From assembly GCA_000165345.1 (NCBI GenBank), contig CM000435.1, positions 256,001 to 320,000 of the forward strand: a stretch of DNA of 64,000 nucleotides, written 5' to 3'. Shown piece by piece: positions 56,401-62,400 of this stretch (within the stretch, counting starts at the first letter, position 1; the number at the start of each line of letters is the position of its first letter). The position numbers were made by a program.

Positions 56401-59400
56401 GAGTTTTATAGTTGGTGATATGATCTTTTCTATATGTAAAGATTGGAGCAGATTTAAGGTTATTCTCCCAATCATCTTTAGCCATTTTCATGCTATTCAG
56501 AGCATATCTATAATAGTCCTCAGCAATTCTATATTCACTTGAATTAGGATGGGCGCCTAAAATTCGCATTTCAGAAAGTTTCTTTTGTGCCATAAAGTAG
56601 GTAAATATTGACACTTGTAAAGCCTCTCTAGACTTTCTGACCAATTCAGACCCTCTCTCTATGTCTAATCTTGTGTAATCATCTCGGATTTTAGCAAAAG
56701 AATGTTTATACTGAATGGATTTGCCATGACTGGGTACATTTGAATTGAAAAGTATTGCCAAAATTATAAATAATAATAAAGGAAGTATATGGCAAAAAAT
56801 GTATTTGTAGCTATTCATTACTTTTCTAGTTACTATTTAACTCCATAATGAATTTTTTTCTTTAATTAAAAAATCAACATTGACTATTATTTGTTAATTG
56901 GCGCCAGTTTTTTTACATACTGCCGGTAAAATAATTTTTGTATCATAATAAAGAAAAAAACTGAAATAGTTTGGCGCCACATGGCACAAATTGACCAGCC
57001 ATCATAATAATCAAAAGAGAGGCAAAAAAAAAATTGGAAGGGTTGAAGCTGGAAAATAAGAAGTGATGCATTTGAAGGAGTTTATATTGAGCTTGGATGA
57101 TGTGAGAGCATTGGTTGAAAGAAAGCTTGAAAGAAATAGAGAGTTTAAGCCAAAAATAAGCTTTATTAAGCATTTAGCTTCTTATTCTGTAACGATACCA
57201 TCATTAACAAAAATAAGCGATGAAGCTCTAAAGATAGCAAAGAAAGATGGGAATGAAAAAGCAATATATATGGACACTATTATAGTGCCAGCACTTCCTA
57301 GATCATTAAAGAGAGAGGATAATTTGAGTAGTTTGCAGTGTAGATTTTCTTACTCTCAAAAGCCATGCTCAATTTCTCCAACAACGCATTATGATTTATT
57401 GAGCAATATTTTTGGTTACGAAAATTCTCAGGACGCTAATATTTTTGCAGATAGATTTTGTTTAAGAAGACTAATAGACTTCTCACTTGGTTCTATAAGC
57501 TCAGAAAATGCAGATATTATGGTTTCAACCAAGTTGAGAATTGATGATAATGGGGAGCTAGAAAGAATTTCTCCGATAAAAATGCTTCCAATTAATATAA
57601 CTGAGGGATTTCCAAGTGTCGGATTTCAATTTGAGACTTATTTAACACGAAGTGAAATAGGTCTGGGATTAAATCCAGATGCAACCTTAAAGATGGCAGA
57701 TTCTTGTTTTGTTGTGGATGAAATATCATTTGGAGATTTGAGGTTAATAAGAAGGTGTGAAATTGATGCAGTAAGTAAACGTCATGTATATGGAGATTCT
57801 AAAGAAAGAAGTAAACAAGAAGAATATAAAAATAGTTTGTGCCATAAGAGTTGGGAGCAAAAGATTTATAATACGGATACAGAATTTATGGAAAGGAGAA
57901 TGAGCCCTCCTTGTAGAGTGTTTTTGTCTGATAATTTTAAATCTTCAAAATTGTCCCCTGAAAATAGGGTTGAAATTAAATCTATTTCATGTAGAAATAC
58001 TCACAATTTTTCTTGGGTTTCAGTATATTTTCAGATGCTCATTGGCTCCACCCCAATTTTGATCAGGGGTTGTCATAATAGAGGATTCTTTACACAAAGG
58101 TCTATAACATCTTTTAATTTAGACCAGGTTAAAGAATTTTCAGAAAAGGAGTTAACTGCACGCAAGATACCTAATTTAGATTTCTCAGAATCAAATTGGG
58201 ATACAATTACATCAGCTATTGCATTTTCAGAGGCGATACTTACGTATATTTCCAATGATTTATTGGAATTGATTGGTTCATATTTATTTAAGGAAAATGG
58301 CCCTGGTGACCATTTTGTTAACTTTACCATTAAAAAGAAAGAAAACAATATAATTTTTCAAATATTAAATCCAAACGAAAATTTACCAAATATTGCTGGC
58401 CCAATTAATTATTGGAATGATTATCTCTCTAACAAATAATTAAAATGCCACGTCATTTTAAACATTTTTGCATGTACTGCGCATGCAAACATTATTTATT
58501 AAACACGTAATGTGGGGATGGGAAAAATTGCATGCATGTCAAAAAAACTGTAATAAAAATCATCCCAGACCTCATAGGTTTTTGAAAAGATTAAATTAGT
58601 AATTTTATGTTAGTAGAAAACTTCTATATATTTTTATTTATTTATTAATTATTATTCTTTCATAAATAATTTTGAAAAAATTGTTAAGTTAGTTAAATGA
58701 TAATATCATGAATATTGAAGATAAGTCAGGAAATAAACTTAAGAAGAAAATAAATATTTTATTTGAAAGATTATTTTCAAATGATGGGATTTCTCATATA
58801 TATTTGTTACTAGTAATCATTCTATTGGTAAATTTGGGAATTGGATTATTTTTCTGTGGCCGTAATTTGAACAAACAAAGTGAGTTAATTTCAAGTTCTA
58901 TATTTGATATAAACATTAATTTTCCAAAGGGGGATAAGGATACAAATAATAATAACTCAGTTTATGTGCCAAGGGATGAAATTTTGAACCAAAATAAACC
59001 TCAAGATTCCAAAAGTACAACTACTACAACTACAACCAAAAAGGTTTCTACTGTTATAACTGCTAGTACAACAACTACAACAACTAAGGTTGATACAAAA
59101 AATTACAATGTTCAAAGCCCAACAGATAATTCTATTCCAACTTGTCTATATTCAAGCAAATTTCCTACAAAATATGATTTAAATGGTCTATTATTTTGGA
59201 ATGTTTCTTCTGATACGTATATATATTGGGGATATCAGAACAAAACAGGAACTGTATATATTTTGGGAAACAATAAACAAATAAATAGTTCAGTACAACT
59301 AACTGATAATATATCAAGTAAATCAGATCTTGATCAACCAAAATTAATTGAGTTTAAAGAATCAAATATTGTAGATTCAAAAGTAAAGATCGGGCAGGTG

Positions 59401-62400
59401 GCAAGTAGTAAGGTTATTGCAATTGGTGAAAGAATTCTGCCTCCATACTGGTATATGAATTGGGTAGAACAAACCTCAACAAGATCTAAAGAAAGATTCA
59501 AGCCACTTTTTCAGCCTTGTCTTGGAAGTTTATATACTTATAGCAACAAAAATTTGCAAGGATTCTTTCAAGATCAAGGTGTGGTTTATATGTGCGGTTT
59601 CAAGAGCTATACAGTAGAAAAAGACTTGATAGAGTTAAAAAATACTCCCTTTATCAAGTTAAAAACAAATATTCAAGGTAAGTTTACGAAATGAAATAAG
59701 AATTTTGTTATTTAAAAAAAAAAAAAAAAAAAAAAACCCTTTAATTCAATTTTTATAGATAATTATTTGAGTCTTGTGAAGAGCAGATCTAAAAATAGAA
59801 TCTATAGATTAATGATCATTAAATGTCAAGAAAAACAAGGAAATTATAAATATGTGGTAACATACTCTTCAAATATTAGTAGATCTATAAAAGAAGAAGA
59901 TTGTGAAGAAAATCATGATTCTTGGCTAATGTATAAATCTGGGGGATCTTTGTTCACAGTTAGTAAGGAAGGCTCAGGAGACTGGCAGATGCGTACAGAA
60001 ACTGGCAAATTTGAGTCTTTAACGGAGACAGGTGAATTAAAGAAAGAGCCGTGTTTTTCAAGTTGGTGGACTACTTATGGTGGTGTAACATCAAAACAAT
60101 ACGTACCATCAACATAGAAGAATAATAGAAGTTATGAACTACAAAAATTAAAAAGAAAGATAAACATAAGGAGAGAATTATTTAAATATTAATTTGTAGA
60201 ATTCAAGGCTTAAATGAAAAATTTTAGGTATTTTACGGGTAATAGATAGATCACACAAAGCGTATAGTAATTTTGGCACACATAAAATAAATGGCAAATA
60301 TAAGATCAGGAAGATAAAGGAACAATTGGGAAGAATAATATTAAAGAAGAGCAATTAAGAGTTGAAAAATGACAGTAGCTACCTCAAGCAGGAGGAATTC
60401 GAGGAGATCTAGCTTATCTTCAGAATCTAGCTTGACTAGCCATACATCCTCAACAAAGCCAAAAAACTCTTATATTCAAAAGAATTCCTCAGTATCAGGG
60501 GGTAATGGCACATCTCACAATTGTTATAGCCATAAAGGGAGATCTGGAAGTGGTTTTGGTTCCAGTTCTTCGTATGAAAATAGAGCCTATCTTGTATCGG
60601 GAGGAGGTTCTTGTATTGGGAATAATACTAGTATGGGTAATGCTAATGGAAGTTTATTAGCACCAAATGTTCAATTGGATAATTTACCCTCAGAGAGAGT
60701 GGGGAATGGTTCCCCTAATTGGGCACTAAGTGCAGATGTTTGCAGCTTAAAAGATTTTAAGGAACTCATAGAATGTAAAAATGAGCATGCAGAGTCTGTT
60801 TTAAGAAAGTATTCTGGTATTAAAAGTGTGAATGGTGGGAGAGGAATTAGACAGGTTCTAGCTTCAATTGTACGTGGATCGCGTACATCAAAGAATCGAA
60901 GTTCATCAGTAGATTCAGGATCGTGTGGGATGGTATCCTCTTCTACTTCAACAACAACATCTTCTGCAGCATTGGTTTCAAATTTGAATCGCAAAAATAC
61001 AACTGGAGGAGATATAAATAATACGAGAATAAAGATTGAAGATAGCATTGATGGAAATGGTACTATTATTAATGATAATAATGGTAGCAGCACTAGCAAT
61101 AGAGAATGTAATATATTAACAGGACAACCCATTCAAAAAGCAATTCTTACTCAGAGAGATATTATGGAATTAAGAGGAAAAATAGATAAAGTATTATCAA
61201 CAGAAGATAGTTTTGTAAGATCAGCACTACAATCTTTTCAACAATTTGATTTTGATGGAGATGGAAACTTAACAATTGAAGAATTATTAGATTTATTAAC
61301 AACATTAGGAGAACATTTGGCATTACCTCCAATAAATAGAAAAGTTGTTGCAAATGAAATAAGTATACGTTTGAATTCAAAGTTAACAGTTGATAGTAGT
61401 GCATCAGAGAGCAAAATGTTGATAAGTTTTCCATTCTTTCTCAAGTATTACTTAAGTGTATTAACAACAATTAGACAAAAACATTTCAGTTCTGTGAAAA
61501 TTAATGGAGAATTACAACAGAATAAAGCAATACGTAAGCATTTAGTACATGAAGATGATATTAATGATTTATATACATTTCATTATCAGTTAGGAACAGG
61601 AACTTATGGAGAAGTATTTCTTGTAACTGAAAATTATACAAGACAAAGAAGAGTGTGTAAAATTGTGGATAAAGTCAAATGTCGTAGGAAATTGGATGAA
61701 ATTGATCACGAGGTTGAAATTTTAAAGCAATTAGATCATCCTGGCCTTGTACATATTTACGAAGTTTACGAGGATAGACTAAATTTATATTTTATATTGG
61801 AATTTTGTGCTGGAGGGAATTTATTTCACTCTCTACAAGATGCAATTCAATCAGGATTTCGATTTTCTGAATTTCATGTTTCACGAATAATTCAACAAAT
61901 ACTCTTGGCAATACGTTATTTGCACTTGAAGAGGGTAGTACACAAGAATTTGAAGCCTCAGAATATACTCTTAACTAACTCTTTCGGGAGTGGAAATACC
62001 TCAGTTAAGCTCGTTGATTTTGGACTTGCTGAAATTTTTTCATCAGATGAAATAAATCTTCCAGAACTAACTACTTCAAATGTTTCTCCTTCACATTTCC
62101 ATTCACCATTAAAATCCTTACCTCTCTCATCTTCCTCATCATCCTCCTATATAACCCAAGATCATATCAAAACCCATAATCAAGCTCAACCTCAAGCACA
62201 GATTCAAGGACATACACATAATACCTCCTTATCTTCTATTTCCAACCAAAATCGTGCATCTGAAGAAGGGTATTTGTTTGCTAGTGTGGACGAAGTCACC
62301 GGCATTCATAAGTCCAACTCAAGCCATAATTCAAGTCCAAGTTCAAACTCTAGCTTAGCTCAAAATCTTCACCAAGAAGAATCCTTAGCTTCATATCCAA

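Follow-up and report, generated by a model that had tools for sequence, protein, structure and literature searches.

Mucin-type glycoproteins are known adhesion factors of Cryptosporidium, and the mucins of this genus have been described as low in sequence similarity and highly divergent between intestinal and gastric species (PMC5146892). We compare here with these proteins (gp900, gp60/40/15, Muc1-7 and Muc25) a gene that a preliminary description had read as a spliced mucin-like membrane glycoprotein involved in host interaction. The gene lies at positions 58708..60117, on the forward strand, of a stretch of 64,000 nucleotides (nt) of Cryptosporidium parvum chromosome 7 (GenBank assembly GCA_000165345.1, contig CM000435.1, positions 256,001 to 320,000); this whole stretch is referred to below as the window, and all coordinates are counted within it. 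The interval is, with high confidence, a single two-exon gene, which joins cgd7_1250 to an adjacent open reading frame (ORF) of 101 amino acids (aa) and would encode a membrane protein of 442 aa. The likeness to the Cryptosporidium mucins consists in a predicted entry into the secretory pathway and in Thr runs that could take O-linked N-acetylgalactosamine (O-GalNAc). They differ as follows: here the Thr tract is very short and lacks conservation, most of the protein belongs to a globular, Cys-containing domain that is conserved, and the gene, which has no sequence homology to mucins, shows high conservation between C. parvum and C. hominis instead of fast evolution.

Locus and current annotations

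All 4410 bases of the segment 57208..61617 match CP044416.1:306917-311326 (chromosome 7 of C. parvum IOWA-ATCC), and the gene range annotated on CP044416.1 corresponds to 58708..60117 of the window. An exact-sequence look-up of the 442-aa product retrieved QOY40437.1 (CPATCC_003285 / CPATCC_0006980, C. parvum IOWA-ATCC) and the identical WRK33290.1 (cpbgf_7001250, C. parvum BGF), both of which are labelled 'uncharacterized protein'. These records describe the same gene with the same model, without any difference from the gene in the window, and the orthologues in C. hominis TU502_2012 and C. meleagridis carry the merged model as well. The claim of the preliminary description that two adjacent ORFs form one spliced gene for a protein of about 440 aa thus agrees with the deposited IOWA-ATCC and BGF models, and the merged two-exon model is already known from current annotations, so that nothing in it is new. 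The IOWA-ATCC annotation as a whole was built from RNA-seq, complementary DNA, proteomics and manual curation across three species.

The 2004 Iowa II/RefSeq annotation, by contrast, splits the locus into XP_628309.1 / EAK90593.1 (328 aa, cgd7_1250), to which the 328-aa ORF of the window is an exact match, and XP_628310.1 / EAK90594.1 (101 aa). In that model, the first piece reads past the splice donor to a TGA and the second begins at an internal ATG, with the result that residues 324-341 are lost. Given that the kinase gene immediately downstream is cgd7_1260, that is, CpCDPK9 (PMC8875172), the locus is cgd7_1250. No paper text mentioning cgd7_1250 was found, and in supplementary files the gene appeared only as one entry of an orthologue table.

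Gene structure

The gene consists of the following parts:

58708..59677, forward strand: exon 1, 970 nt, from the ATG to the base before the donor, ending in phase 1 (aa 1-323 and the first base of codon 324)
59678..59758, forward strand: intron, 81 nt, phase 1, 15% guanine plus cytosine (GC), GTAAGT...TTTTATAG, with in-frame TGA (59692) and TAA stops
59714..59736, forward strand: A23 homopolymer within the intron
59759..60117, forward strand: exon 2, 359 nt including the TAG stop (60115..60117), from the last two bases of codon 324 to aa 442

An in-frame stop is present at 58690, 18 nt 5' of the ATG of exon 1, and the orthologues begin at the same Met. The first ORF, 58708..59694 (328 aa), contains near its 3' end the donor caag/GTAAGT, the G of which is at 59678, and 14 nt separate the end of the exon at 59677 from the TGA at 59692. 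The acceptor TTTTATAG, the first AG more than 30 nt past the donor, finishes at 59758, and the junction codon g + at = GAT (Asp) leads into the frame of the second ORF, 59767..60117, giving the merged product of 442 aa. The ORF bounds, donor, acceptor and phase given in the preliminary description all held when they were rechecked, apart from the run of A residues before the acceptor, which had been counted as 22 and comprises 23 bases. The peptide that spans the junction is TNIQDNYLSLVK, which can originate only from a spliced mRNA.

In size and composition the intron fits the published introns of C. parvum (mean 84-99 nt, 22% GC), and intergenic spacers average 552-589 nt, far more than the 72 nt that separate the two ORFs (PMC4637869). 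The homopolymer within the intron differs among close species (T3A23 in C. parvum, T11A18 in C. hominis and T6A8 in C. meleagridis); such a hypervariable tract could act as a length marker or produce assembly errors.

Comparative evidence for splicing

Restoration of the reading frame was rejected as evidence by itself because 49 different GT...AG pairs around the gap would yield an open merged frame; a neighbouring overlapping ORF pair in the window offers 15 such pairs. The donor is more specific: the 64-kb window contains 15 copies of GTAAGT, both strands counted, and among the 46 open frames of at least 100 aa only one, namely 58708..59694, has this motif within its last 33 nt.

The preliminary description had proposed a comparison of orthologues as a check on the spliced model. 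We recovered the orthologous locus from ten other Cryptosporidium lineages, two of them from raw-read assemblies (L007, SRR31860986, and L008, SRR31861040) that carry syntenic orthologues about 60% identical to that of C. parvum. In all 11 lineages, C. parvum included, a phase-1 intron with an invariant GTAAGT donor and an AG acceptor is present at the homologous position, and the frame across the junction is kept. The intron lengths are as follows:

C. parvum, 81 nt
C. hominis, 84 nt
C. meleagridis, 70 nt
C. ubiquitum, 72 nt
C. canis, 59 nt
C. felis, 116 nt
C. bovis, 53 nt
C. ryanae, 52 nt
C. andersoni, 88 nt
L007, 69 or 72 nt
L008, 76 nt

The two values for L007 reflect an acceptor with two AGs 3 nt apart (AAG/CAG), either of which keeps the frame. 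The shortest intron thus has 52 nt and the longest 116 nt, and at least seven lineages have a length that is not divisible by three, so that their exons lie in different frames and can be joined by splicing only. In the introns of C. bovis and C. ryanae, the acceptor AG is preceded by CACTAAC.

Sequence conservation follows the same boundaries. The two exons of C. parvum share 92.5% and 95.5% identity with those of C. meleagridis, compared to 72.6% with 17 gap columns for the intron. With C. meleagridis and C. ubiquitum as references, exon 1 has a ratio of nonsynonymous to synonymous substitution rates (dN/dS) of 0.13-0.17 and exon 2 one of 0.11-0.21; purifying selection acts on both. An alignment of eight sequences, with 92 invariant columns overall, continues through the junction and includes the conserved motif SRSKNRIYRL, which is located 5' of the first ATG of the second ORF and in which S334, K335, N336, R340 and L341 are invariant. 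A stand-alone gene for 101 aa cannot account for these residues.

These observations bear directly on the older annotation, under which two independent genes would be present, one for 328 aa ending at the TGA at 59692 and the other for 101 aa starting from the ATG at 59812 (MIIKCQ...). Both the persistence of that model in the databases and several aspects of our own evidence speak against a single spliced gene and deserve to be listed together. XP_628309.1 and XP_628310.1 are still deposited, as are the equivalent records of C. hominis UdeA01 and C. tyzzeri, which keep the split model; the locus is not among the 14 merged regions of the RNA-seq-based reannotation of 2015 (Isaza 2015); the gene models of the orthologues are predictions, and the L007 and L008 loci are raw DNA in which the intron was located in the present analysis; and a 29-mer across the spliced junction had no match in the JGI metagenome contigs, a result that is in itself uninformative. 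Against two genes stand the conservation that crosses the junction and extends 5' of the second ATG, the GTAAGT/AG intron kept in the same phase in 11 lineages, and the inter-ORF gap of 72 nt as opposed to a mean spacer of about 550-590 nt. The gap (59695..59766) also contains no GCATGC motif, and in C. canis, C. bovis, C. ryanae, C. felis and C. andersoni exon 2 has no plausible independent start in register. The existence of two separate genes therefore appears highly improbable.

A different possibility is that the intron is real and is often retained, in which case a C-terminally truncated isoform of 328 aa, possibly a regulated one, would be produced beside the 442-aa form. The intron is a multiple of three in C. 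parvum (81) and C. hominis (84) and has an early in-frame stop, so that its retention would give a defined truncated protein, and the paper on the IOWA-ATCC reannotation describes alternative splicing, although in general terms. We nevertheless consider such an isoform improbable, given that it would lose three invariant Cys together with the most conserved C-terminal motif, and that the multiple-of-three length is not conserved in other species, which implies no selection for a reading frame through the retained intron.

Taken as a whole, the comparative evidence points strongly to a single spliced gene, the decisive observation being the genus-wide conservation of the position and phase of the intron; that the RNA itself is spliced in this way is what we infer from the sequence and the comparison combined. 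Under this model, the spliceosome would remove an ancient 81-nt, phase-1 GT-AG intron (59678..59758), and the resulting mRNA would encode 442 aa.

Predicted protein architecture

Three regions can be delineated in the 442-aa product:

58798..58860, forward strand: hydrophobic segment, aa 31-51, IYLLLVIILLVNLGIGLFFCG, a putative type II signal anchor
59014..59085, forward strand: Ser/Thr-rich stalk, aa 103-126, STTTTTTTKKVSTVITASTTTTTT, a possible O-glycosylated spacer
59119..60114, forward strand, across the intron: conserved ectodomain, aa 138-442, defined by the invariant columns of alignments A1 and A2

In the Kyte-Doolittle profile, 19-residue windows above 1.6 occur only within aa 22-54, with a peak of 2.79 at the window 31-49, and no second transmembrane segment exceeds this threshold. 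Six residues in and next to this segment (G44, G46, L47, C50, G51 and N53) are invariant in the eight-sequence alignment. The conservation of the segment and of its boundary NLGIGLFFCGRN across the genus favours, in our view, a retained signal anchor over a cleaved signal peptide. The signal anchor that the preliminary description had placed at the N-terminus is accordingly plausible, as a single conserved hydrophobic segment that follows a Lys-rich N-terminus. The charge bias around the segment is weak: the 30 aa that precede it contain 6 Lys/Arg against 4 Asp/Glu, and the 15 aa that follow contain 2 against 1.

The ectodomain, of about 300 aa, contains six invariant Cys (146, 271, 296, 346, 372 and 422) and an invariant N165-x-S167 sequon, one of six N-x-S/T sequons in the 442-aa protein, and its C-terminus, WWTTYGGVTSKQYVPST, is nearly invariant. 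Since the invariant sequon and all six invariant Cys are in the C-terminal part of the protein, a lumenal C-terminus is favoured. This conserved domain, which the preliminary description had noted as a Cys-containing C-terminal domain, extends over both exons instead of being limited to the second. Altogether, the protein is probably a single-pass type II signal-anchor membrane protein. The Lys-rich N-terminus of 30 aa would be cytosolic, and one uncleaved helix (aa 31-51) in type II orientation would be followed by a poorly conserved stalk, in which, in the C. parvum clade, the two short Thr runs could be O-GalNAc glycosylated, and then by the lumenal or extracellular domain of about 300 aa, which may be mostly beta-strand according to a low-confidence model and would carry an N-glycosylation sequon and six Cys, probably forming three disulfides. 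Our best guess, on these predictions, is a membrane-anchored glycoprotein of the secretory pathway or the cell surface, in which the disulfide-bonded ectodomain would be the working part and the Thr tract only a spacer.

Distribution, homology and structure searches

Orthologues that carry the label 'putative integral membrane protein' or that of 'transmembrane domain-containing protein' were identified in C. meleagridis, C. hominis TU502_2012, C. ubiquitum, C. canis, C. felis, C. bovis, C. ryanae, C. andersoni, C. muris and C. serpentis; the gene is present in the gastric species as well. The orthologues agree in architecture, intron position and synteny, with a gene of 450-460 aa and no known function upstream and the CDPK9 kinase downstream, but differ in that the identity falls from 98% to about 31% and the Thr-rich stalk is confined to the C. 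parvum-like clade. The orthologues of C. bovis and C. ryanae contain an insertion of about 20 aa in the ectodomain.

A profile search against 1.84 billion representative proteins retrieved only Cryptosporidium sequences, with no homologue outside the genus; the protein is restricted to Cryptosporidium. The merged protein matched no Pfam family even at an E-value of 1, and a profile search against the sequences of the PDB gave no match at an E-value of 10. A comparison of the profile of the ectodomain with itself using hhalign revealed no internal repeat (E-value 0.85) and hence no support for a propeller or another repeat architecture. When structures were compared with the PDB using Foldseek, the best match, the beta-propeller of prolyl oligopeptidases, had an E-value of 0.05 and a TM-score (template modelling score) of 0.16 and was treated as noise.

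The proposed architecture has its weak sides. Topology and glycosylation are predicted from simple rules (hydropathy, charge, sequons); the AlphaFold2 model of the full protein, based on eight sequences, had a predicted local distance difference test (pLDDT) value of 32.5 and was unusable; and that of the ectodomain, based on 13 rows, reached a pLDDT of 50.1 and a predicted TM-score (pTM) of 0.44, a low-confidence model that consists mostly of beta-strand.

The layout of the protein would also suit a resident type II membrane protein of the endoplasmic reticulum (ER) or Golgi, similar to Golgi glycosyltransferases and other processing enzymes, given that aa 1-30, 31-51, approximately 52-137 and 138-442 fit a tail, an anchor, a stalk and a lumenal globular domain, respectively. 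Genus-wide conservation under purifying selection would be expected of such a housekeeping factor. The results of the searches point the other way: no Pfam family, PDB sequence or solved fold was matched, the invariant columns reveal no evident DxD-type motif, and the mostly beta-strand model, low in confidence as it is, is not Rossmann-like. We regard an ER- or Golgi-resident protein of this kind as unlikely and retain the less specific assignment to a membrane-anchored protein of the secretory pathway or cell surface.

The Thr tract and comparison with mucins

The label of a mucin-like protein derives from the Thr tract, in which runs of seven (T7, aa 104-110) and six (T6, aa 121-126) Thr residues are found within about 24 residues. 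The poly-Thr, O-glycosylation-like tract of the preliminary description is therefore present, although it amounts to only about 5% of the protein and is not conserved in the family. Ser and Thr together make up 20% of the protein overall, 70% of the best 20-aa window and 55% of the best 40-aa window; no extended Ser/Thr(/Pro)-rich domain of the kind that would identify a mucin forms a major part of it. The orthologues of C. felis, C. bovis, C. ryanae and C. andersoni lack the tract, and that of C. canis has it in reduced form; its conservation does not extend beyond the group of C. parvum, C. hominis, C. meleagridis and C. ubiquitum and the L007 and L008 relatives. Given that it is missing in those four species, the term 'mucin-like' fits a clade-specific stalk and not the family. 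The conserved ectodomain is presumably the functional part of the protein, to which the Thr tract would serve as a spacer.

A surface or secreted glycoprotein that functions in attachment to or invasion of the host cell, like gp900, gp40/15 or Muc4/5, could be envisaged on account of the hydrophobic segment of secretory type, the Thr runs of 7 and 6 as possible sites of O-GalNAc, the six N-x-S/T sequons and the known role of mucin-type glycoproteins of Cryptosporidium in adhesion (PMC5146892). However, the Thr tract is missing in species in which the rest of the protein is conserved, and whereas the known mucins are divergent, the C. parvum and C. hominis copies of the present gene share 98% identity (0.99 in the orthologue table). 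The gene is, furthermore, genus-wide in distribution and did not appear in the mucin and invasion-protein supplementary files of comparative-genomics papers that were searched. A mucin-like role in host-cell attachment or invasion is accordingly doubtful. The label of a host-interaction glycoprotein was dropped, given that no link to host interaction was found for a gene with a short, non-conserved Thr tract that is absent from the searched mucin and invasion files; the membrane-anchored protein with a conserved ectodomain remains the preferred description.

Genomic surroundings

The window has a GC content of about 30% and is filled with long, intron-poor ORFs. Two further features were recorded next to the gene:

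58481..58486 and 58530..58535, forward strand: two GCATGC motifs in the 268-nt intergenic region 5' of the start codon, a possible promoter element
60369..63494, forward strand: kinase gene, 1041 aa, protein kinase domain and C-terminal EF-hands (Pfam), cgd7_1260 = CpCDPK9

GCATGC is an over-represented upstream motif in Cryptosporidium. The window contains 21 such sites, several of them clustered (e.g., 47169..47179 and 34252..34256), with none at 59695..59766, and this clustering suggests a promoter element. In CpCDPK9, the N-terminus is extended by a long Ser-rich stretch, and the kinase domain carries a low-complexity insert.

The upstream neighbours, 57063..58439 (forward strand, about 457 aa) and 55031..56818 (reverse strand, about 595 aa), likewise matched no Pfam family, and their synteny holds in every species examined; together with the gene described here they constitute a run of genus-specific genes of no known function. 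Farther upstream, the forward-strand ORFs 30488..32821 and 32758..33867 overlap in different frames and have one Lys/Glu-rich repeat in common (SKEKEEKIESIIKEK). The last approximately 60 aa of 30488..32821 look out of frame, and the region has a GC skew of +0.29 to +0.40, that is, a strong purine skew; 30488..33867 is probably one long coiled-coil-like gene broken by a frameshift or a short intron. At 25786..29844 on the forward strand, where an ORF for a bromodomain protein of 1352 aa is located, the window reaches its highest GC content (42-44% compared to about 30%). An Rfam scan of the whole window gave no match.

Implications

The main value of this analysis lies in annotation hygiene, given that split records persist in RefSeq Iowa II and in several C. 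hominis and C. tyzzeri records. Whatever is derived from such records, be it an orthology table, a proteomic database or a knockout design, will lack 18 residues and treat the C-terminal third of the protein as a separate protein of 101 aa.

With regard to biology, the gene is one of many that encode genus-restricted membrane proteins of Cryptosporidium. The 98% identity between C. parvum and C. hominis and the presence of the gene in gastric species argue against a fast-evolving role in host specificity of the kind typical of mucins. A more specific proposal, which the sequence features would allow and to which we assign only a small chance, is that the ectodomain represents a fold or family unique to Cryptosporidium and, if located at the surface or in a secretory organelle, functions as a genus-wide receptor- or glycan-binding module, the Thr stalk being a recent addition in the C. 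parvum clade. If this were the case, the protein would present a conserved target rather than a variable mucin.

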